Origin: Candidatus Magasanikbacteria bacterium CG1_02_32_51
GTDB lineage: Bacteria > Patescibacteriota > Patescibacteriia > Magasanikbacterales > UBA922
Direction of reading: 5' to 3'
DNA length: 64,000 bases
Assembly (NCBI GenBank): GCA_001871435.1
Contig: MNVC01000019.1
Coordinates: 218 to 64,217 of the forward strand
Both the position numbers and the translations under genes were made by a program. This document shows, piece after piece, positions 768 through 62,275 of the stretch; position 1 is the stretch's first letter, and each line of letters begins with the position of its first letter. The notes below the pieces were generated by a model that did not search any database, was not told the DNA's origin, and saw nothing but the letters and a program-made list of their open reading frames with translations.

Positions 768-1536
768 TTATATGTTTGACAGTGTCAAAATTTTGGGTAT
801 AAAAATAAGTAAACTAAACAAAAAAGAAAGTCTAGAATTGGTGTCTAACTTTTTAGTTTTGCAAGGTCAATATAAAATCTTTACCCCTAATCCAGAAATG
901 TTGGTAGATGCTAGAAAAGATAGTTATTTTCGTAAAGTATTGAACAATTCTGATCTCAATATTTGTGATGGACATGGTATTAAATTTCTTTCCAAAGAAA
1001 AAATTACTGTAATTTCTGGAGTTGATTTTATGCTAGATATTTGTAAAATAGCTGAACAAGAAAAGTATTCAATTTTTTTACTAGGTTCTGGCTCAGATAT
1101 TGTTTTAGAAAAATTACAAAAAAAATTACAAAATAGTTTTCCAAAATTAAAAATTGTTGGTTCTAATCCCGGTTTGAAAATTGATCTAAAATTAGAAGAA
1201 GACAAAGTTTCTTTAGATTTTGATAAGTCCAAAAATGAAGAAATTATAAAAAACATAAATGAGAGTAATGCCAGTATTTTATTTGTAGCTTTTGGACACA
1301 ACAAACAGGAAAAGTGGATTTATGAAAATTTGCAAAATTTACCAAAAGTAAAATTAGCTATGGGTGTTGGTGGTTCATTTGATTTTATTTCTGGTAAAAT
1401 AAAACGTGCTCCCAAATTTTTGCAAAGATTTGGATTAGAATGGTTTTATAGACTTATTATTCAGCCAAAAAGATTTATGAGAATTTTGAAAGCCACAATA
1501 ATTTTTACTTATTTTAAAATAACCAACAATAAATAA
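757..1536 (+). CDS. WecB/TagA/CpsF family glycosyltransferase (N-acetylmannosaminyltransferase-like)
   Basis: KIFTPNPEMLV, CDGHG and a C-terminal FGLEWFYRLIIQPKR motif typical of the WecG/TagA family. It carries an internal insertion of about 40 aa. Confidence 0.7.
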   Translation: MVNNYMFDSVKILGIKISKLNKKESLELVSNFLVLQGQYKIFTPNPEMLVDARKDSYFRKVLNNSDLNICDGHGIKFLSKEKITVISGVDFMLDICKIAEQEKYSIFLLGSGSDIVLEKLQKKLQNSFPKLKIVGSNPGLKIDLKLEEDKVSLDFDKSKNEEIIKNINESNASILFVAFGHNKQEKWIYENLQNLPKVKLAMGVGGSFDFISGKIKRAPKFLQRFGLEWFYRLIIQPKRFMRILKATIIFTYFKITNNK

Positions 1537-2309: not shown

Positions 2310-3767
2310 ATGATTAAATCTCGTTTTGCTCCAAGTCCAACTGGCTATCTTCATATTGGTAGTTTGCGTACAGCTCTTTTTGCTTATCTTTTTGCTAAGA
2401 AAAAAAATGGTCAGTTTTTGCTTCGTATTGAAGATACTGATAGAGAGCGCTTTGTGGAAGGATCTCTAAAAAATATTTTAGATTCTTTTGCTTGGGTAAA
2501 TATTGTTATTGATGAGGGTGTAATTTTAGAAAATGATAATATTATTCAAAAAGGTGAAAATGGACCGTATATTCAATCAGAAAGATTAGATATTTATCAA
2601 AAGTATATTAAAGAATTATTAGAAAAAAATAATGCTTATTATTGTTTTTGCAGTAAAGAAAGATTGGATGAAATGCGGGCTATACAAGAAGCAAATAAAC
2701 ATGCCACAGGTTATGATGGATATTGTCGTAATTTGAGTAAAGACGAAGTAGCACAAAAATTAGCAAAAAATGAAAAATTTGTTATTAGAATGAAAATGCC
2801 AGATAATGGTTTGACTGTGCTGGAAGATATGATAAGAGGAAAAGTTGAGTTTAAAAATGAACTTTTTGATGATCAAGTACTTATCAAGTCTGATGGGTTT
2901 CCAACATATCACTTTGCTGTAGTAGTAGATGATCATTTGATGGGAATTACCCATGTTATTCGAGCAGAGGAGTGGTTACCTAGTACTCCAAAGCATGTAG
3001 TGCTTTATCACATGTTTGGTTGGAAAGTACCTCAATTTGCGCACTTATCTTTGTTGATAAATGAAAAAAAACAAAAATTATCCAAAAGAAATGGTGATGT
3101 TTCTGTAGTTGATTATGTCAAAAAAGGTTATTTGCCAGAAGCTTTTGTAAATTTTATTGCCTTTTTAGGTTGGAATCCAGGAGATGATAGAGAATTTTTT
3201 AGTATGTCTGAACTAGAAAAAGAATTTGATTTTGCCAAAGTTGGTAAGGCTCCGGCAGTATTCAATTTAGAAAAATTAAATTGGTACAACAAACAATACA
3301 TCATGAAAATGTCTGCTGTTGAACTATCAGAAAGATGTAGAAGTTTTTATGCAGAAAAAAATGTTGATATTAAAGACTTTGATTTGACTAGAGTTGTAGC
3401 ATTAGAGCAGGGGAGGGCTAATACACTTTTAGAGATTGTTGAAAATACTAGTTTTATTTTTTCTGAAAATATTTACGAAGCAGATTTGTTGGTTTGGAAA
3501 AAATCAGATAAAATAAAAACCAAAGAAAATTTACAATTAACTTTGAATTTTCTGCAAGATTTTTCAGGTGTTTGGAGCAGGGAAGAGTTGGAAGTAGGTG
3601 TATTGGCTTGGATAAAGGATAAGGGTTTGGGTAATGGTGATGTTTTATGGCCGATGCGGGTTGCTTTGTCTGGTTTGAATAATTCTCCAGGACCTTTAGA
3701 AATTGCTGGTGTGCTTGGTAAAGAAAAAACTTTAGCAAGAATAAAAATAGCTGTAGATAAAATTTAG
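2310..3767 (+). CDS. gltX: glutamyl-tRNA synthetase
   Basis: Class I motifs: PSPTGYLHIGSLRTALF (HIGH region) and KLSKR (KMSKS); 485 aa. Confidence 0.9.
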   Translation: MIKSRFAPSPTGYLHIGSLRTALFAYLFAKKKNGQFLLRIEDTDRERFVEGSLKNILDSFAWVNIVIDEGVILENDNIIQKGENGPYIQSERLDIYQKYIKELLEKNNAYYCFCSKERLDEMRAIQEANKHATGYDGYCRNLSKDEVAQKLAKNEKFVIRMKMPDNGLTVLEDMIRGKVEFKNELFDDQVLIKSDGFPTYHFAVVVDDHLMGITHVIRAEEWLPSTPKHVVLYHMFGWKVPQFAHLSLLINEKKQKLSKRNGDVSVVDYVKKGYLPEAFVNFIAFLGWNPGDDREFFSMSELEKEFDFAKVGKAPAVFNLEKLNWYNKQYIMKMSAVELSERCRSFYAEKNVDIKDFDLTRVVALEQGRANTLLEIVENTSFIFSENIYEADLLVWKKSDKIKTKENLQLTLNFLQDFSGVWSREELEVGVLAWIKDKGLGNGDVLWPMRVALSGLNNSPGPLEIAGVLGKEKTLARIKIAVDKI

Positions 3768-7530: not shown

Positions 7531-7579
7531 TTTTTTAGTAAATTTTTGCTATGTTATAAATAATTATTTTGTTTGGCAG

Positions 7580-7693
7580 ATTAATCCGCCCACAGCCCAA
7601 GGCGTGCACGGCAAGGCGGACAAGGTTTAATTCCTCGTCAGCTTCAGCCAGAGGACTGATCAGCCTTGGGCACGATGCTGCTAGGTAGTTCAT
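7580..7693. repeat. GC-rich structured repeat element, copy B (inverted; in the sense orientation of, and upstream of, ftsQ)
   Basis: Reverse complement of 64-177 at about 98% identity. Confidence 0.85.
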
Positions 7694-7786
7694 TTATAAA
7701 TGTTTTTAAGCAGGAAACCTGTCTGCCGACAGGCAAGGATCCCTCATTCAATTTCTTCGTACCTCAGAAATTTCTTTCAGGATAAA

Positions 7787-30844: not shown

Positions 30845-31169
30845 AGTATAAATTATGTTGATTTGAACCTATCTTGTAAGCAAAATACCCGCCTTATTGA
30901 CGGGACACTATACAATATAAGACGTAAAATTAGCCAAAATGTTACAGTAGAGTCTTATTTAACTATTTTTTAGGATAAAAAATATGATAAAATTGTCTAA
31001 TTTTTCAAACATAATATCTCTTTGTCATCACCTAAATATTCTATTTAGAAATATAAGATAAAAACAAAAATAATCTCAAACAAAATTTTTATTGAAAAAA
31101 TAAAAACTTTGGTTGAGTGGGAAGGCATTTTCTCCTTTGTAAATGCTTATTCCCAACCCCCCTTGTTGT

Positions 31170-31571
31170 TCAGTTCTTAGACACAGGCTTGTACGAGGAG
31201 TGATGATGGACGATTTTCCACTCATCCTCAGCCATTCTCTTGGCAAGGAAAGTGAAGCGAGCTTCTACAACCAGTTGTCCATCGTGGGTGGAAAAATCGT
31301 AGAACCCAGCGAGGAGAACAATCTCTTCACCAAACTCCTGAACGACCAATTCTCTAATAATTCCTCGCGGACTACTAGGCATGAAGTCCTCCTGGAAGTA
31401 CTCCAAGGCACCACTCACACCCCTCTTGAGATCACCCGACATAGTTGGTAGAAAAGTGGCATCATCCGCGTACAACGCGGCGATGACATTTGGTTCATCA
31501 CTATGTAAGGCCTCAAGCCATTTATCTAGGTACTTGTGCATTTTGCCACCTTTCTCAGAAGTAAATACCAA
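31170..31571 (-). CDS. NTF2-like/SnoaL-like small protein (DUF4440 or SgcJ/EcaC-type) on a GC-rich foreign-looking cassette
   Basis: 133 aa; about 50% GC coding sequence against a 28% GC genome; fold assigned from its pattern of hydrophobic and acidic residues. Confidence 0.5.
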   Translation of the reverse strand: MVFTSEKGGKMHKYLDKWLEALHSDEPNVIAALYADDATFLPTMSGDLKRGVSGALEYFQEDFMPSSPRGIIRELVVQEFGEEIVLLAGFYDFSTHDGQLVVEARFTFLAKRMAEDEWKIVHHHSSYKPVSKN

Positions 31572-47551: not shown

Positions 47552-48088
47552 TTATTTGATTACATTTTCTACATAATCTACTGTGGAATGCAAAAGTTGT
47601 AAAGCTTGAGGCAAAAGAGGTAAAAAAATAGAAGCAATACTACTCAAGATTGGAGCTAATGTTGAATGTGCCAAACCCGTCATTACTTTTTCAGAAAGTG
47701 GAATTCTCTCCACAAAATAAACAAAAAGGCCAACACTCAAGATTCCTTCTATTAGACCAAATCCTAAACCAAACAGATGATTGAAAGTTTTTACAAAAGG
47801 AATAATAGATACTATCTTAAAAATTTTATCAACAAACCAAAATAAAACACCAATAGCACTAGTAATGATAAAAAAGGCTATTATAAACATTAAAACTTTA
47901 CTTGTATTGGCATGCCAACCAGTAAAAGATGAAAGCCAATTTGCCAAATCCTGATAATATCTACCAGCAAGATAAACACCCAAAAAAGTACCAACAAGAG
48001 AACCAAAGGCTCTAACAAATCCAGTCCAAAAACCATAAATGCCAAAACCACCAATAATTATAAGTAAAATAATGTCAGTAATATGCAT
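47552..48088 (-). CDS. cvpA: CvpA family membrane protein
   Basis: Four TM helices and an N-terminal DIILLIIIGGFGIYGFWTGF typical of CvpA. Confidence 0.55.
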   Translation of the reverse strand: MHITDIILLIIIGGFGIYGFWTGFVRAFGSLVGTFLGVYLAGRYYQDLANWLSSFTGWHANTSKVLMFIIAFFIITSAIGVLFWFVDKIFKIVSIIPFVKTFNHLFGLGFGLIEGILSVGLFVYFVERIPLSEKVMTGLAHSTLAPILSSIASIFLPLLPQALQLLHSTVDYVENVIK

Positions 48089-48142: not shown

Positions 48143-48336
48143 CAAAAAAAGCCCCTATGGGGCAATTATATTGAAGATGTGAGTGGACAGGCACGATCTT
48201 CAAAAAAATTACTCAACGTGGAAAGCCTATAAGGAGGTAACGGCACATCGCGTCAAGGTGTCTTCGAGAAGCCTCAGATCCAAGTTTTCCACACACACAT
48301 GGATACTGAGTTTTTCGCACCTGCCACACTCACAAA
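48143..48336 (-). ncRNA. candidate rod-like sRNA (6S-like) with its own promoter and intrinsic terminator
   Basis: The minus-strand transcript starts near gugagugUGGCAGG (48333) and closes with CCUGUCCAcucac. Internal helices UGGAAAA/UUUCCA and GAAAAACUCA/UGAGuaaUUUUUU give a long irregular hairpin, ending in gccccauaggggc plus a U8 run (48143-48163). TTGACA at 48363-48368 in minus sense. GC enriched. The only overlapping ORF (48183-48437, +) looks spurious. Confidence 0.35.
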
Positions 48337-48433
48337 TAGAGTATTGCACTTTTTCAAGCCTTTGTCAAGTATCTAAACAAATAAAATTACCCTTAGTTAA
48401 GGCAATTTTATTTATTAATTTAAAAAAAATATC

Positions 48434-49963
48434 CTAAATAATATGTTTTTCCAACCTTACAAACAATATTTCAGCTTTTTTGATTTCATTTCCTTCTTTT
48501 AACAACCCCCAATTCTTTTTTTCTGCCAAATTATTTTCTATTTCCAAATTTAATTGAGCCAATATTTTCTTTGCTGTTTCTGGAATTATAGGTACAAGAG
48601 ATAGAGCCAAATGTCTAAGACCTTCCACAAGTTGATAAAGTAAAACAGAAATATTTTCACCAGTCTTTACTTTTGCCCAAGGTTTTTCTTCTGAAATTTT
48701 TACATCAATTTTTGAAACCAAAGAATTGATATTTTTTATTACTTCTTCAAAATCAAATTTTGCAAAGGCAATATCATAATCAACCCAAAACTTTGCTGTT
48801 TCAAAAATATCTTCAGCAACTTTTGGAATTTTATTTTCATTATATTTTTCTATCATGGTTAGTATTCTGGAAGTCAAATTACCAATACCATTTACCAAAT
48901 GGGCAGTATAAAAATCTTCAAAACGAGAGATACTAAAATCTCCATCTTTAGTAGACGAGACAGCCCCAAGTAGATAGTAACGTACAGCATCAGTACCATA
49001 CTTCTCCACTACATCTTTTGGATCTACCACATTACCAATTGATTTACTCATTTTTTCACCCTCAACAGTAAGATAACCATGAATAAATTCTAGAGTTGGC
49101 AGACTTAATCCAGCTGAAATTAACATTGCTGGCCAATATAACACATGAAATTTACCAATACCCTTACCAATTACATGCACAACTTCCCTGTCTTTTTGAT
49201 CTTTTTGCTCCCAATATTTACTAAACAAACTTTCGTCAGCACTACCGAAATTAAGACCTGTAATATAATTTGACAAAGCATCTACCCAAACATACATAAT
49301 CTGATTTTCATCACCTGGAACTTTTACACCCCAATTATGTGCACGCTCTGCACTACGAGAAATACTGAAATCTTCTAATCCCCTATCAATGAAAGCTAAC
49401 CATTCGTTCTTACGAAATTCTGGAGTAATTTTTATAATATTCTTTTCTACCAATTCTTTCAATTTTTCTTGATAGTTGGAAAGTTTGAAAAACCAATTTT
49501 CCTCTTCCACTATTTCTGGTTCAGTTTTGTGTTCTGAGCACTTACCATTTTCTAGCTCATCTTCCTTGTAAAAAGCTTCACAACCAACACAATAAAGACC
49601 TTTATATTTTTTCTTTTCCAAATCTTCTGCCTTAAAATTTGTCCATAATTTTTGAGCACCAATGAAATGTCTCTTTTCTGTGGTACGAATGAAATCATCA
49701 AAGGAAATATTCAAAATATCTTTAAAATCATAAAAAGTTTTGTAGTATTCATCTACAAATTGTTGTACATTTTGACCAAGTTTTTCTGCGGCCTGAACAT
49801 TTTTCAAAGAATTTTCATCAGTCCCCGTCAGAAAAAAAACATCTTTTCCAAGCAACCTCTGATAACGTGCCATCGCATCGGTTTGGACATATTCCAAGGC
49901 ATGACCAACATGTGGTTTACCATTAACATAAGGAATAGCTGTTGAAATGTAATATTTATTCAT
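48434..49963 (-). CDS. metG: methionyl-tRNA synthetase, short form without the C-terminal EMAPII-like domain
   Basis: ISTAIPYVNGKPHVGHALE (HIGH region) and KMSKS (EGEKMSKSIGN); zinc knuckle CVGCEAFY...CSEHK. Confidence 0.9.
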   Translation of the reverse strand: MNKYYISTAIPYVNGKPHVGHALEYVQTDAMARYQRLLGKDVFFLTGTDENSLKNVQAAEKLGQNVQQFVDEYYKTFYDFKDILNISFDDFIRTTEKRHFIGAQKLWTNFKAEDLEKKKYKGLYCVGCEAFYKEDELENGKCSEHKTEPEIVEEENWFFKLSNYQEKLKELVEKNIIKITPEFRKNEWLAFIDRGLEDFSISRSAERAHNWGVKVPGDENQIMYVWVDALSNYITGLNFGSADESLFSKYWEQKDQKDREVVHVIGKGIGKFHVLYWPAMLISAGLSLPTLEFIHGYLTVEGEKMSKSIGNVVDPKDVVEKYGTDAVRYYLLGAVSSTKDGDFSISRFEDFYTAHLVNGIGNLTSRILTMIEKYNENKIPKVAEDIFETAKFWVDYDIAFAKFDFEEVIKNINSLVSKIDVKISEEKPWAKVKTGENISVLLYQLVEGLRHLALSLVPIIPETAKKILAQLNLEIENNLAEKKNWGLLKEGNEIKKAEILFVRLEKHII

Positions 49964-58897: not shown

Positions 58898-60268
58898 TTA
58901 TGAACTTTTAACTTTCAAACTGTCCCTGACAATTTGTCTATCATCCCAAAAAATCATTTTTCCTCCAGTTATACACATAGCTTGTTCACTTCCCTTTCCT
59001 GTTAGCAAAATCAAATCCCCTACTTTGGCTATTTCTACAGCTTTACCAATAGCTTCTTTTCTATCTAATATTTCAAACAAATTTTCATTCAATTTTTTAC
59101 CAGCCTTTTGAGCAAATTCAGAAACTTCTTTGATAATAGACAATGGATTTTCATCATAAGGATCTTCGTCAGTTACAATGAAAATATCAGCCTTTTGGGC
59201 AATCATCTCTCCTATTACTTTACGACGAGATTTATCACGGCCACCACCAGTAGAACCACAGACATGAATTATTCTTCCTGTTGGTTTTAACAAATCAACA
59301 ACTTTGTATAATTTAGTAAGAGCCACTGGTTCAAAGGCATAATCAACTATTACATCAAAGCCTTTGCCTTTTGCTTCTAAAATAAATTCATTTCTTCCTG
59401 GAACATTTTTGAAAACACTAACAGTTTTTTCAATTACTTCCCAGAAAATATTTAATTCACGAGCTACTGTAATAGCACCAACAATATTATAAATATTATG
59501 TTCACCATACATTGGTGCCATAAATTTGTGATTTTCAATTTCAAAATGTAATCCATCTTTATCCACTCGAACATCACTAAACAAAAATTTGTCTGTTATA
59601 TTTTCTAAATAATCTTTTTCTTGTTTACTACCAAACACTATTTTTTTTGCAAAATTGAATTGCAAAAATTCTGGAGAATATTGGCTATTACAATTGACGA
59701 TTGCTGTTTTTCCAGCGAAGACTGGTTCGCCTAGGACGGAGTTCATTGATAATTTATTACCTAACTTTTTAACACTACACTCGGAAACGTATTCAAAAAT
59801 ATCCAATTTAGCTTTTTTATAATTTTCGAAACTACCGTGAGATTCAATATGCTCAGGATACAAATTAGTCAAAACTATCATATCATAATTGATGAAGCTA
59901 TGACGGTACTGTAAACGACCCTCAGAAGTAGTCTCAACAATTGCTACATCACATTTCTTATCTACCATTTCACGTAAATATTTTTGAATTTGCATACGAC
60001 CAAGCATGGTCATCTTCTGATCATTTAATTTTTCTTCTCCTGCAACATAAAAATCAATAGTGGATAATGAACCTACACGCAAACCAGCACTTTCCAAAAG
60101 CTGTCTCAACAGATATACAGTTGTAGATTTTCCACTAGTACCAGTAATTCCAATAACCAATAATTCTTGGGAAGGATTCTTGTATACAAAGGCTCCAAAC
60201 CAAGCAAAAAATAAATGTCTAAGATTTAAAAACTTTTTTGGAAATATTTTTTTTATTATTTTTTTCAT
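58898..60268 (-). CDS. Mur ligase family protein, MurE-like
   Basis: IGITGTSGKSTTV P-loop and VIVDYAFEP (DYAHTP-like); the C-terminal TDEDPYDENP sits where MurE has DNPR. N-terminal hydrophobic segment. Confidence 0.6.
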   Translation of the reverse strand: MKKIIKKIFPKKFLNLRHLFFAWFGAFVYKNPSQELLVIGITGTSGKSTTVYLLRQLLESAGLRVGSLSTIDFYVAGEEKLNDQKMTMLGRMQIQKYLREMVDKKCDVAIVETTSEGRLQYRHSFINYDMIVLTNLYPEHIESHGSFENYKKAKLDIFEYVSECSVKKLGNKLSMNSVLGEPVFAGKTAIVNCNSQYSPEFLQFNFAKKIVFGSKQEKDYLENITDKFLFSDVRVDKDGLHFEIENHKFMAPMYGEHNIYNIVGAITVARELNIFWEVIEKTVSVFKNVPGRNEFILEAKGKGFDVIVDYAFEPVALTKLYKVVDLLKPTGRIIHVCGSTGGGRDKSRRKVIGEMIAQKADIFIVTDEDPYDENPLSIIKEVSEFAQKAGKKLNENLFEILDRKEAIGKAVEIAKVGDLILLTGKGSEQAMCITGGKMIFWDDRQIVRDSLKVKSS

Positions 60269-60320
60269 ACTATCTCTCTATCAACAAAAAACTGTTTTAT
60301 TTATCTTAATACACAGTTTT

Positions 60321-60348
60321 TTGATATTAATAAAAAACGTGATACAAT
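60321..60348 (+). promoter_or_regulatory. sigma70-like promoter TTGATA-N16-TACAAT driving the GC-rich ncRNA candidate
   Basis: ttgata at 60321-60326 and tacaat at 60343-60348. Confidence 0.45.
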
Positions 60349-60349
60349 A

Positions 60350-60585
60350 GATGTGCTGGAGTAGTTCTGGAGGGGTTCTACAATCTTCAACCAGTCTGTT
60401 GGAGGCCGGTACAAAGTGCAGAGATATATGCGACTTGCCTGTTATTCCTAACTGACAAAGGAGGTGGAGGGCAAGTTTGGCTCCCAGTTAATGACGCTTA
60501 TCTACGTCGGAGCCGGATAGGTCAAAGTTTGGGAAGACTTAGACCTTGATGTCATATTCTCTGCACTCTTCTTCCCACCATTTTA
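60350..60585 (+). ncRNA. candidate structured ncRNA of about 230 nt, class undetermined
   Basis: About 48% GC island in a 325-bp ORF-free gap. Long-range helix gugcagaga (60413-60421) / ucucugcac (60559-60567). ggaggccgg and ggagccggauagg motifs. The 3' end reads cccacca. Confidence 0.3.
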
Positions 60586-60592
60586 TTTGAAA

Positions 60593-61171
60593 TTATTTAG
60601 ACTCATTCAAACTAAGTTCATAAACTACTTTTTCAATCTTTTGAGCAGCCATTTTGGCTTGATCAAACTTGTTACGCAAATAACTGGTGAGATTAAATTC
60701 TATAAGTTCTCCTGTGATTTCTTGTGCCATGTTAGTACATTGTTTTACTTTTTTCATATCTTTCTGCGTAGCTGACTTGATAGCATAACGATACAATTCT
60801 CCAGGTACATCACAAAGTCCACCAATATAGCTACGTTCTGGAATTGTTATATCTGCAATTTTTCCTATTTTTCCAGTAGTCAAAAATTGATAAAACAAAT
60901 TAGCTTCAACATACTCTTCAAGACCAGCTTTGAAAGAACCTTCTTCTTCAACTTCTCTATATTTATAATATTTCTTCAAAAGATTTTCCAATAATTTTTT
61001 ACTATTAAGCAATTTCTCTTCAGCTTCCTTCATATTGTCCCTGTGCATGGCAAAAATAGCCCTTTTGGCATTGTACAAGGCGTCATCTGATGATTTTATT
61101 ACTTCTCTTCTTACCTCAGCATACTGAAGCAAATTTTTTTTTATACTATTCAAATATTTTTTGTCCATCAT
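60593..61171 (-). CDS. translin-family-like protein (hypothetical)
   Basis: All-helical 192 aa; YIGGLCDVPGELYRYAI resembles the translin GEL-containing signature. Confidence 0.35.
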   Translation of the reverse strand: MMDKKYLNSIKKNLLQYAEVRREVIKSSDDALYNAKRAIFAMHRDNMKEAEEKLLNSKKLLENLLKKYYKYREVEEEGSFKAGLEEYVEANLFYQFLTTGKIGKIADITIPERSYIGGLCDVPGELYRYAIKSATQKDMKKVKQCTNMAQEITGELIEFNLTSYLRNKFDQAKMAAQKIEKVVYELSLNESK

Positions 61172-61362
61172 AATTTCTAATTAAAATAAGTTAAATTAGC
61201 CTGAATAAATAATAATGGATAAATCTAAATTAAAGACTATTATTCACTAAGACATTATGTTATAATATCCCCGTAATATTTTCCGAGAAAAGTCACAGAA
61301 TAAGTCTTGACTTTTTTACTAAGGTATTATATCATATAAAACGTAATTTTCAACCTAAACAT

Positions 61363-61426
61363 GGTCCGGTAGCTCAAACAGGTAGATCCGTCGGCTGACG
61401 GACTATTAAGCTAAATGGTCGTTTGT
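61363..61426 (+). pseudogene. degenerate partial duplicate of the downstream tRNA-Lys, with an inserted GC tetraloop hairpin and no T-arm
   Basis: ggtccggtagctca and ttaagctaa.tggtcg are shared with the tRNA. The intervening stretch carries the hairpin ccgtc-ggct-gacgg. No GTTCGAA box. Confidence 0.4.
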
Positions 61427-61448
61427 AAAAAAATAAAATTAAAAACAT

Positions 61449-61521
61449 GGTCCGGTAGCTCAGCTGGTAGAGCAGTAGCCTTTTAAGCTAACGGTCGTGG
61501 GTTCGAACCCCACCCGGATCA
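61449..61521 (+). tRNA. tRNA-Lys (anticodon UUU)
   Basis: Folded by hand: acceptor GGUCCGG/CCGGAUC, D-arm GCUC-AGCUGGUA-GAGC, anticodon loop CUUUUAA, T-arm GUGGG-UUCGAAC-CCCAC, discriminator A. CCA is not encoded. Confidence 0.8.
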
Positions 61522-61645
61522 CAAAAAGAAACGTCCTTTAAAAAAGGATGTTTTATTTTGATAATTATTTACAATAACAACAGTTTGTCTTAATTTAGCT
61601 ATTTTGATATAATTAGATAGTCAAAAGTCCTTAAAGACAAAAAAT

Positions 61646-62275
61646 ATGATTGATATCAAAAAAGGTATTTATAAACACTACAAAGGCAAAGAATACAAGG
61701 TTTTGGGAATTGCCAAACTTGAAGAGACACTAGAAGATCTAGTACTTTATAAACCTTTGTATGAACAAAGTTTGTGTGATTATTGGGTTAGACCAATTAC
61801 CAATTTTTTGGAAGAAGTAGAAATAGATGGTAAAAAAATACCTAGATTTGAATTTGTTTCTGAAAAAATAGAAAGACCAAAAGTAGGTGTTGGCGTAATC
61901 ATAATAAAAGACGGAAAAGTTTTGCTTGGAAAAAGAATAGGTGCACATGGAGAAAATACATTTGCTTTTCCAGGTGGACATTTGGAATTTAATGAAAGCT
62001 GGGAAGATTGCGCCAAAAGAGAAACAACAGAAGAGGCTGGTATTGAAATTAATAACATAAGATTTTTTACAACAACAAATGATATTTTTGAAAAAGAAAA
62101 TAAACACTACAATACTATTTTTGTTTTAGCTGACTATATCTCTGGAAAACCTGAAGTAAAAGAACCTCACAAATGTCTTGGCTGGGATTGGTACAATTGG
62201 GACAATTTACCAACACCACTTTTCAAAACAATTGAAAATTTATTAAAAACAGGACTCAATCCTTTAAAAAAATAA
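61646..62275 (+). CDS. DUF1653-NUDIX hydrolase fusion protein
   Basis: N-terminal GIYKHYKGKEYKVLG...YWVRP (DUF1653-like). C-terminal Nudix box GGHLEFNESWEDCAKRETTEEAGI. Confidence 0.6.
   Translation: MIDIKKGIYKHYKGKEYKVLGIAKLEETLEDLVLYKPLYEQSLCDYWVRPITNFLEEVEIDGKKIPRFEFVSEKIERPKVGVGVIIIKDGKVLLGKRIGAHGENTFAFPGGHLEFNESWEDCAKRETTEEAGIEINNIRFFTTTNDIFEKENKHYNTIFVLADYISGKPEVKEPHKCLGWDWYNWDNLPTPLFKTIENLLKTGLNPLKK

Follow-up and report, generated by a model that had tools for sequence, protein, structure and literature searches.

One gap between genes in the window analysed here (the whole 64,000-nucleotide (nt) stretch of contig MNVC01000019.1) carries a GC-rich element that we read as the gene for a stable, highly structured non-coding RNA, predicted to be transcribed as an independent unit. 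The gap (60269-60592) is flanked by two minus-strand genes of Candidatus Magasanikbacteria, an uncultivated groundwater bacterium, and the RNA gene occupies the plus strand from 60353 to about 60588, giving a product of about 230 nt that is antisense to both neighbours. We consider it very likely that this is a genuine structured RNA gene belonging to a new family. The family has not been catalogued until now and is confined to a narrow clade of Candidatus Magasanikbacteria, in the Patescibacteria or Candidate Phyla Radiation (CPR). A first-pass annotation, made from the letters of the window, had put forward for this place a structured RNA candidate, about 230 nt long and preceded by a promoter, and the conserved, covarying fold of the plus strand described below bears this out. 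That annotation had also noticed the unusual composition of the region. The contrast holds, although its figures of 48% and 28% were slightly off: the GC content of 60350-60590 is 46% (as measured with cmsearch) against 30.8% for the whole window, with a maximum of 0.51 over segments of 120 nt.

Conservation and fold of the RNA

Homologues were obtained solely through a metagenome scan with the Translin protein encoded next to the RNA and through look-ups of exact proteins. An identical Translin protein is found on five contigs, including GCA_002322575.1 and GCA_002784905.1, and the gap on those five contigs matches that of the window except for one single-nucleotide polymorphism (SNP), T to C at 60552. 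The near-identical strains (L081-L086) differ by this one SNP and thus give no information on covariation. Three diverged copies (in loci L087, L106 and L088, the last the same as L090) are 76-82% identical to the window RNA and lie in the same gap in the same orientation. The family is known from these four distinct sequences plus the one-SNP strain variant, and the covariance model built from it (R1) finds only these in the 43 sources searched, which comprise 309 kb of loci and the window. The best relatives of the neighbouring ligase, taking one genome per species, are from Candidatus Magasanikbacteria metagenome-assembled genomes at 72% identity. A search of 80 genome loci found via the Mur ligase, using nhmmer with the single RNA sequence, gave no match, nor did BLAST of the RNA against phage genomes or a pattern scan of viral contigs with its most conserved stretch.

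Evidence for a functional RNA comes from its pairing. The minimum-free-energy fold has an energy of -84.7 kcal/mol and a z-score of -3.2, and RNAalifold applied to the first three distinct sequences returns 62 pairs, 7 of them compensated. The helices were curated by hand on the four distinct sequences, and double changes were counted on a model-guided alignment (A6). On this basis 13 pairs are changed on both sides, against 3.7 +/- 1.6 in shuffled controls, none of which reaches 13 in 500 trials. The fraction of paired cells is 91.3%, compared to 36-47% when the partners are slid by 1-3 columns. The compensating double changes are spread over the molecule, with four each in H1 and P1b, three in Pb2 and one each in Pa, Pb, Pc and P0. 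Comparison with related genomes had been named in the first-pass annotation as a way to check its proposal, and it has yielded both conservation and covariation. The hand-curated pair table also tells the strands apart. Canonical pairs fill 287 of 296 cells when read on the plus strand and 265 when read on the minus strand, which indicates that the plus strand is the functional one; the promoter, and the hairpin terminators seen in related loci, agree with this. A minus-strand reading, in which the sequence would be an intercistronic element of a Translin-murE mRNA, was rejected, given that 22 G-U cells turn into A-C mismatches and that promoter and terminators are on the plus strand.

The elements of the fold are as follows, from 5' to 3'.

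60353..60412, plus strand: 5' Y-shaped domain, a three-way junction (curated pair table)
60353-60359 with 60406-60412, plus strand: P0, closing helix of the Y domain (one double change)
60361-60367 with 60375-60381, plus strand: H1 hairpin (4 of 7 pairs change with pairing kept)
60385-60391 with 60398-60404, plus strand: H2 hairpin (curated pair table)
60416-60424, plus strand: 5' strand of P1, GUGCAGAGA (minimum-free-energy and consensus folds)
60426-60431, plus strand: 5' strand of P1b, the inner extension of P1 (four compensating double changes)
60432-60440 with 60469-60477, plus strand: Pa helix (100% of cells paired, one double change)
60441-60456, plus strand: variable hairpin inside Pa (sequence and length differ per homologue, pairing always kept)
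60457..60468, plus strand: invariant single-stranded AAAGGAGGUGGA (invariant in the alignment, unpaired in the covariation-supported fold)
60479..60514, plus strand: Pb helix of the Pb/Pb2 arm, GGCUCC/GGAGCC (one double change, C-G to U-A)
60493-60496 with 60505-60508, plus strand: Pb2 inner hairpin (two to three double changes, GACG/CGUC to GGUG/CACC)
60519..60546, plus strand: Pc hairpin (100% of cells paired, one double change)
60528-60537, plus strand: 10-nt loop of Pc, UUUGGGAAGA (consensus fold)
60551..60566, plus strand: 3' strands of P1b and P1, the latter UCUCUGCAC at 60558-60566 (minimum-free-energy, consensus and curated folds)
60570..60576, plus strand: pyrimidine tail UCUUCCC, which may form a pseudoknot with GGGAAGA (60531-60537) of the Pc loop

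The Y domain is joined by the linker ACAAA to the closing helix P1. Together P1 and P1b make 15 pairs, of which 4 show double changes and whose cells are paired in 98.6% of cases, and they close a four-way junction with the arms Pa, Pb/Pb2 and Pc; the strain SNP falls within a bulge on their 3' side. The pairing of GUGCAGAGA with UCUCUGCAC had been seen by eye in the first-pass annotation, and it recurs in both the minimum-free-energy and the consensus fold, with the four double changes of its extension adding to it. The loop of Pb2, UAUCUA, is conserved.

Two tertiary contacts can be proposed from the sequences. The loops of H1 and H2 are mutually complementary in all four homologues: UGAG/CUCA in L087, CCUU/AAGG in L088, AGG/CCU in L106 and GGA/UCU in the window. 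The H1 loop of L088 is pyrimidine-rich (UCCUU) with AAGG in the H2 loop, and the other three have a purine-rich H1 loop (UGAGGG or UGGAGGG) with CUCA, CCU or UCU in the H2 loop. A kissing contact between the two loops is suggested by these complementarities of 3-4 nt. The second contact would join the pyrimidine tail to the Pc loop. It shows one compensating change (GGGAAGG/CCUUCCC in L088) and pairs in 97% of cells, but the slid controls also pair in 60-89%, both partners being runs of purines or pyrimidines. For that reason we keep this plausible pseudoknot as no more than a possibility.

The features that bound the transcript, and the genes on either side, are listed next.

60321..60326, plus strand: -35 hexamer TTGATA (promoter scan; TTGTGA, TTGTAA or TTGTTA at the same place in the homologues)
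60340..60348, plus strand: extended -10, TGaTACAAT (promoter scan; TGnTACATT in L087, L106 and L088)
60581..60588, plus strand: U-rich tract UUUUAUUU, putative 3' end of the transcript (read from the sequence)
60306..60316, minus strand: conserved box (reverse complement TGTGTATTAA), candidate -10 of a divergent murE promoter
58898..60268, minus strand: MurE-family Mur ligase gene (Pfam Mur_ligase_M and Mur_ligase_C), context only and outside the RNA
60593..61171, minus strand: Translin-family gene (PF01997, E = 2.7e-21), context and convergent with the RNA

The promoter is the one that had been read in the first-pass annotation, TTGATA and TACAAT (60343-60348) separated by a 16-nt spacer, and it is preceded at 60340-60341 by the TG of an extended -10. 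As a sigma-70-like site it scores 10 of 12 matches and ranks second in 60000-61700, and the -35, spacing, TG and -10 are kept in all three diverged homologues. From this we infer a transcription start at about 60353-60356. The probable 3' end is the U-rich tract UUUUAUUU. In L087 a U-run follows directly after UCUUCCC, and L088 has in its place a separate hairpin terminator farther downstream. The CCCACCA ending that had drawn attention earlier is real in the window and in L106 but absent from L087 and L088, so that it is not a feature of the RNA; a tRNA-like CCA end was rejected on the same observation.

As for the setting, the element does lie in the gap beside the MurE-like gene (290 bits against the TIGR01085 murE model, cutoff 257), but it is not upstream of that gene in the sense of leading into it, as had been written; it points away from murE, and its transcription converges with that of the Translin-family gene. 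Its direction being opposite to that of the MurE-like gene, it forms a divergent unit and not the leader of that gene. Going downstream along the plus strand, one next meets a stop codon at 60593, that of the convergent Translin gene. A cis-regulatory leader (riboswitch, T-box or ribosomal-protein leader) was rejected, as what follows the RNA is this oppositely oriented gene and the RNA ends in its own U-tract or terminator.

Coding potential and known RNA families

The earlier statement that the region lacks a plausible open reading frame (ORF) was confirmed. Only a 34-aa ORF on the plus strand and a 37-aa ORF on the minus strand overlap the region, and neither is conserved among the four homologues; the ORFs of at least 20 aa in these differ in start, frame and length, with none conserved. 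The homologues are also separated by indels of 1, 2 and 5 nt, which are not multiples of three. A small-protein gene or type I toxin mRNA was rejected, since no start codon stands at a usable distance after the Shine-Dalgarno (SD)-like motif described below and the ORFs are not conserved.

In searching for known families we ran Rfam 15 (4227 models) over the whole window, where at gathering thresholds tRNA-Lys was the sole match, and again at E<=10 over 60200-60700, where only noise matches within the AT-rich flanks appeared. Rfam gave nothing relevant on the related loci, and ARAGORN reported no tmRNA (transfer-messenger RNA) in the window, only the tRNA-Lys at 61449-61522. Assignment to a routine family, which would have reduced the proposal to plain annotation, thus did not occur even at the loosest setting. 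The first-pass annotation had left two options, a divergent member of a housekeeping family or an unclassified RNA. Only the second stands; the first is contradicted by Rfam, by ARAGORN and by the absence of the defining features.

Those features were looked for one family at a time. For signal recognition particle (SRP) RNA (RF00169 for the small form, RF01854 for the large), no model scores at E<=10 in 60200-60700 and there is no helix 8 or domain IV with its GNAR tetraloop and Ffh-binding internal loops; the sole hairpin capable of a GNRA loop is Pc, whose stem is regular apart from one A-A mismatch and whose loop is 10 nt long in the consensus fold. An Alu-like topology (P0, H1, H2 and their complementary loops) is present, with a linker of just 3 nt (AAU, UAU or UAA) compared to the U-turn UGUAAU of SRP RNA. 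There is no Rfam match to RNase P RNA (RF00010, RF00011), the RNA contains neither CR-I (GAGGAAAGUCC-like) nor CR-V (ACAGAAnnCGGCUUA-like), and the order of its helices is incompatible with the P4 topology. As a tmRNA it would lack paired 5' and 3' ends, a T-loop, a conserved CCA and a conserved tag ORF. With 6S RNA (RF00013) there is no match at E<=10, and the three-way and four-way junctions, with termini that do not pair with each other, take the place of a rod of about 180 nt with paired termini and a large central bubble. The RNA is not SRP RNA, RNase P RNA, tmRNA or 6S RNA.

That it might still be a divergent housekeeping RNA missed by Rfam (an Alu-like SRP RNA, a 6S RNA, a reduced RNase P RNA or a tmRNA) we regard as extremely unlikely. 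Its layout of a 5' Y domain with interacting loops, a long 5'/3' helix and distal helices is like that of long SRP RNAs, and a GC-rich gene with a strong promoter is what one sees for stable RNAs in AT-rich genomes. Besides the negative searches and missing hallmarks, however, close relatives have no such gene at the site and carry unrelated RNAs instead, unlike what would be expected of an essential, universal RNA. The likeness to long SRP RNA (Bacillus scRNA, RF01854) is worth stating exactly, and concerns shape alone. The two RNAs share a three-way junction at the 5' end, with two hairpin loops able to pair, and a long helix in which the stretch following this domain pairs with the 3' region and so closes a distal multi-helix domain; they are also of similar size, about 230-270 nt. 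The window RNA differs by the absence of the helix-8 (domain IV) motif and of any Rfam score at E<=10, by a much shorter closing helix, and by a gene that is dispensable and restricted to one clade.

A parallel may also be drawn with orphan non-coding RNAs such as the raiA motif RNA, OLE and ROOL, which have their own promoter and terminator and likewise are stand-alone genes with an elaborate covarying fold, a candidate pseudoknot and a GC-rich or conserved intergenic island. The window RNA differs from these in having no match in Rfam 15, in its narrow range of four distinct sequences and in its place in a hypervariable slot. The CPR makes up a very large, uncultivated share of bacterial diversity, with tiny genomes and unusual ribosomes, and to our knowledge almost nothing is known of its non-coding RNAs; our search of the literature for small RNAs and RNase P of CPR bacteria or Magasanikbacteria found nothing. 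For the CPR, the present locus adds one family of structured RNA that is new, well supported and defined in its fold.

A variable slot between the Translin and murE genes

The gap that holds the RNA was surveyed in lineages where the Translin and ligase genes are adjacent on one strand. The two genes are separated by 5-11 nt, an operon-like junction, in L005, L008, L094 and L100, and by 116 AT-rich nt in L001; all other surveyed lineages have inserts, which are listed here with the window family designated W.

Structured RNAs: W; T2 (L002, L095, L109); T4 (L004, L099); T6 (L006)
Small hydrophobic ORFs: L003, L009, L097/L113, L105
PDDEXK_3 gene: L015, L104, L107
Acetyltransferase: L110
T2 RNA: L002 3565-3768 (minus strand), L095 3091-3290 (minus strand), L109 about 900-1060 (minus strand)
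T4 RNA: L004 3626-3892 (minus strand), L099 about 3100-3350 (minus strand)
T6 RNA: L006 3713-3917 (minus strand)

T2, T4 and T6 are GC-rich and structured; each has a promoter and a terminator of its own and contains a long closing helix together with a pyrimidine-rich tail, and the promoters and terminators of T2 and T4 are on the same strand as those of W. None of the three matches Rfam. In pairwise consensus folds, 8 of 56 pairs (T2) and 16 of 67 pairs (T4) are compensated. A single family for W, T2, T4 and T6 was rejected, as profile nhmmer (--max), sensitive blastn and the R1 covariance model give no cross-matches and the helix order differs; on this sequence comparison they are treated as separate families with a common position, orientation and promoter context. 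Read by eye, L088 (W) and L002 (T2) share about 75% of their letters between the (T/A)ATACACA box and the -10, both included, and their transcribed bodies cannot be aligned, a pattern that appears to fit the swapping of the transcribed body better than gradual divergence.

One could therefore see the RNA as the payload of a hypervariable accessory cassette (an RNA with conflict or selfish functions, such as an antitoxin-like or defence-related RNA or a remnant of a mobile element) often swapped at a recombination hot spot, and not as a core regulator. The widely varying width of the gap, down to 5-11 nt in four lineages, speaks for this, as do its four mutually unalignable structured RNAs, its alternative contents of hydrophobic ORFs, PDDEXK_3 gene or acetyltransferase, the L088/L002 comparison and the GC-richness of the RNA relative to its host genome. 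Nevertheless, we find no second copy in the window or any locus and no similarity between cassettes at different loci, and terminal repeats, target duplications, a transposase, a toxin or a reverse transcriptase were not found nearby. Purifying selection on an elaborate fold across 76-82% identity points moreover to a benefit for the host. On balance we think this explanation unlikely. A mobile repeat of the MITE (miniature inverted-repeat transposable element) or REP (repetitive extragenic palindromic) type was rejected, with the element being single-copy in the 64-kb window and in all loci and its closing helix being internal, beginning 60 nt after the transcript start.

The box (T/A)ATACACA lies 8-10 nt upstream of the -35 of the RNA in W-type loci, L002 and L099, and judged by its sequence is probably the -10 of a divergent promoter serving murE. 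The insert thus appears to resemble an antisense RNA gene plus a back-to-back promoter pair, through which murE gains its own promoter. This raises the question of whether the role of the insert is mainly in cis, providing a divergent promoter for murE and insulation from Translin read-through (by convergent transcription and the terminator), with the RNA incidental. That the "empty" relatives have Translin and murE 5-11 nt apart on the same strand, and that the box reads as a murE-strand -10 in every RNA-bearing gap, would agree with it. An incidental transcript would, however, not keep more than 60 base pairs through at least 13 compensating changes, nor its invariant loops, and cis and trans roles are not mutually exclusive. 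That the insert matters mainly in cis is in our opinion improbable.

Two further occupants of the slot may be mentioned. In L097 (3076-3306; also L098, L113 and L114) a GC-rich leader and a strong SD sequence, ACAAAAGGAGUGAU, precede a small ORF that encodes a hydrophobic product of about 40 aa. The SD sequence is able to pair with CUUUUGUGC farther downstream, much as in type I toxin mRNAs. In L003 the enlarged Translin-murE gap contains a match to the Rfam DUF3800-II RNA at 3250-3326 (minus strand), with 49.3 bits (gathering threshold 43.2).

Another variable RNA slot (about 48.15-48.35 kb of the window) is bordered by the genes for MetRS (48434-49963) and a CvpA-family protein (47552-48088), and holds a second GC-rich structured RNA candidate on the minus strand at 48145-48372. 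This has a promoter (TTGACA, 17 nt, TGCAATACT), a closing helix of GUGAGUGUGGCAGGUGCG with CGUGCCUGUCCACUCAC whose G-U pairs exist on the minus strand only, a terminator GCCCCAUAGGGGCUUUUUUU and a fold z-score of -5.1, and does not match Rfam even at E<=10. The same gap contains two structured RNAs in L118 (470-940) and a different RNA, with CCUCCUU or UCUCCC hairpin loops, in L120 (740-930, the same as L121) and L122 (700-900). In L119 (900-1003) it is just 98 nt long; this is the same genome as L001, which is also without a Translin-murE RNA.

The Shine-Dalgarno-like motif and its possible function

The sole long invariant single-stranded element of the W RNA is AAAGGAGGUGGA, which comes after the variable hairpin, towards the 3' strand of Pa. 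Over 10 nt it is perfectly complementary to the canonical 3' tail of 16S rRNA, and a second GGAGG follows. The tail used here, GAUCACCUCCUUUCU, is the canonical bacterial sequence taken as that of this organism, whose 16S gene is outside the window, and the duplex of the two has a calculated energy of -16.8 kcal/mol. For comparison, the best duplex of the tail with the 56 annotated gene starts is -7.5 kcal/mol and the median -1.5, and even when any in-frame start within 40 codons is allowed the best reaches -10.2 kcal/mol. An SD core (GGAG, GAGG or AGGA) is present at -20 to -4 in 1-2 of the 56 window ORFs (of at least 100 aa), no more than the background of 5.5% in random 17-mers, and in the related loci (L001-L105) it precedes 6% of ORFs in Magasanik-like genomes and 10% in other Patescibacteria. 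The genome is essentially without SD-led genes. A long match also occurs in an unrelated slot RNA, the T2 RNA of L095, in which GAAAGGAGGUGAUC, with a hairpin loop at its centre, matches the complement of the canonical 16S 3' end perfectly over 14 nt; this match is the longest of its kind in the 1.7 Mb searched, with about 0.02 expected by chance, and L109 carries the same motif with a one-base insertion.

Our tentative proposal is that the RNA may be a trans-acting SD mimic that binds a CCUCC-type partner. Long life and exposure of the motif would both be owed to the structured body, and AAAGGAGGUGGA would pair in trans with the partner. The most likely candidate for this would be the anti-SD tail of 16S rRNA on 30S subunits, which the RNA would dock on or mask; alternatively the partner could be a C-rich RNA for which the W RNA acts as a sponge. 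With respect to what may be expected of such a decoy or sponge, a promoter, a terminator and an invariant unpaired motif are present, and the 10-nt match to the 16S tail taken alone is only weakly significant.

There are several points that weigh against the mimic. Matches of 10 nt or longer to the 16S tail number about 14 independent cases in the 1.7 Mb, with about 11 expected. When the sequences are folded singly, the motif is partly paired in 3 of the 4 homologues (mean unpaired probability 0.43-0.47), although with non-conserved partners. In L087 the motif is interrupted by an additional U and the duplex reaches no more than -13.3 kcal/mol, and the motif is less clear in the T4 RNAs and absent from T6. 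The gene is absent from close relatives, which implies that its function is dispensable. Finally, stretches rich in purines could just as well serve to bind a protein or to make a tertiary contact within the RNA.

The last of these points leads to a protein-binding scaffold or sponge, in which the GGAGG motifs and junction nucleotides would be recognised by a CsrA-like regulator, a ribosomal protein or the Translin-family protein, and the RNA would titrate or organise the bound protein. In its favour, GGAGG is strongly over-represented, the 240-nt RNA containing 4 of the 24 copies in the window (both strands), the invariant single-stranded segments are located at junctions, and a gene for a Translin-family (RNA/single-stranded DNA-binding) protein adjoins the RNA in every homologue. 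However, the partner protein is purely hypothetical, and two of the GGAGG copies lie within helices or a variable loop. The adjacency also looks incidental, as many relatives have the Translin gene but not the RNA, and the slot also takes unrelated genes. We judge such a scaffold rather doubtful.

The SD mimic that we prefer can be set beside known cases of similar sequences. G-rich sponge RNAs pair with C-rich regions of small RNAs (sRNAs), as B. subtilis RosA does with RoxS, and non-translated SD-like "STAB-SD" sequences act as stabilisers in Bacillus mRNAs. Like these, the W RNA has an exposed GGAGG-type sequence with no start codon after it and could pair with a CCUCC-type sRNA or the 16S tail. 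It differs in that the motif is in the middle of a large structured RNA and not at an mRNA 5' end, and in that competition with mRNA SD sites does not apply to a host without SD-led genes. Another comparison is with Bacteroidia, whose ribosomes ignore SD sequences and in which one strong SD, that of rpsU, is reported to sense the free anti-SD tail (PMC13000453, PMC7797042). The likeness is that of a rare strong SD in an organism that otherwise does not use them, and this precedent indicates that SD motifs can function where SD sequences are otherwise ignored. The rpsU sequence stands in front of a protein-coding gene (bS21), whose translation it affects in cis, unlike the motif of the W RNA, which has no ORF after it.

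A broader idea, which we put forward as a long shot, is that Magasanikbacteria, translating without SD sequences, may maintain one or more fast-evolving slots for interchangeable structured RNAs. The one functional element common to these RNAs would be an exposed stretch complementary to the 16S tail, over 10 nt in W and 14 nt in L095, by which they would dock on the otherwise unused tail of the 30S subunit. If true, such RNAs might silence, store or mark ribosomes, and would represent an RNA-based ribosome regulator in ultra-small symbiotic bacteria. The leads that come out of this work are the exchange of unrelated structured RNAs at one intergenic slot among related genomes, and an SD-poor genome in which two unrelated slot RNAs nevertheless have long complements of the 16S 3' end. 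If the pairing with 16S rRNA is true, this would be a new way of addressing ribosomes by RNA; if not, the RNA is still useful for catalogues of RNA families and for the annotation of CPR genomes.

The motif also has a counterpart in the RNA of the second slot. A hairpin loop of the 48.2-kb RNA, ACCUCCUUA, is a look-alike of the 16S 3' end and complements AAGGAGGU of the W RNA at 60.4 kb. A duplex of the two whole molecules was rejected, being no better than shuffles (38/200); the local complementarity of 8+2 bp at the motif, read by eye, remains. Under the broader idea above, the 48.2-kb RNA, whose motif is the opposite one, could serve as a natural antagonist of the W RNA. The anti-SD-like loop is not conserved in its closest homologue, the second RNA of L118.

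A few other observations were made in the window. A GC-rich element of 117 nt occurs twice in inverted orientation (64-180 and 7578-7694, 97% complementary) around a 7.4-kb block of genes; it has no match in Rfam, and a repeat, the end of a mobile element and an RNA are the candidates. Just upstream of the intact tRNA-Lys (61449-61521) there is a degenerate partial copy of its 5' half at 61362-61425 (GGTCCGGTAGCTCAAACAGGTAGA...TTAAGCTAAATGGTCG), which may be the scar of an integration or duplication event. Finally, a 900-nt gap that is otherwise AT-rich contains a GC-rich island (0.54, 31121-31571) over a minus-strand ORF of 133 aa, and this may be a foreign gene.

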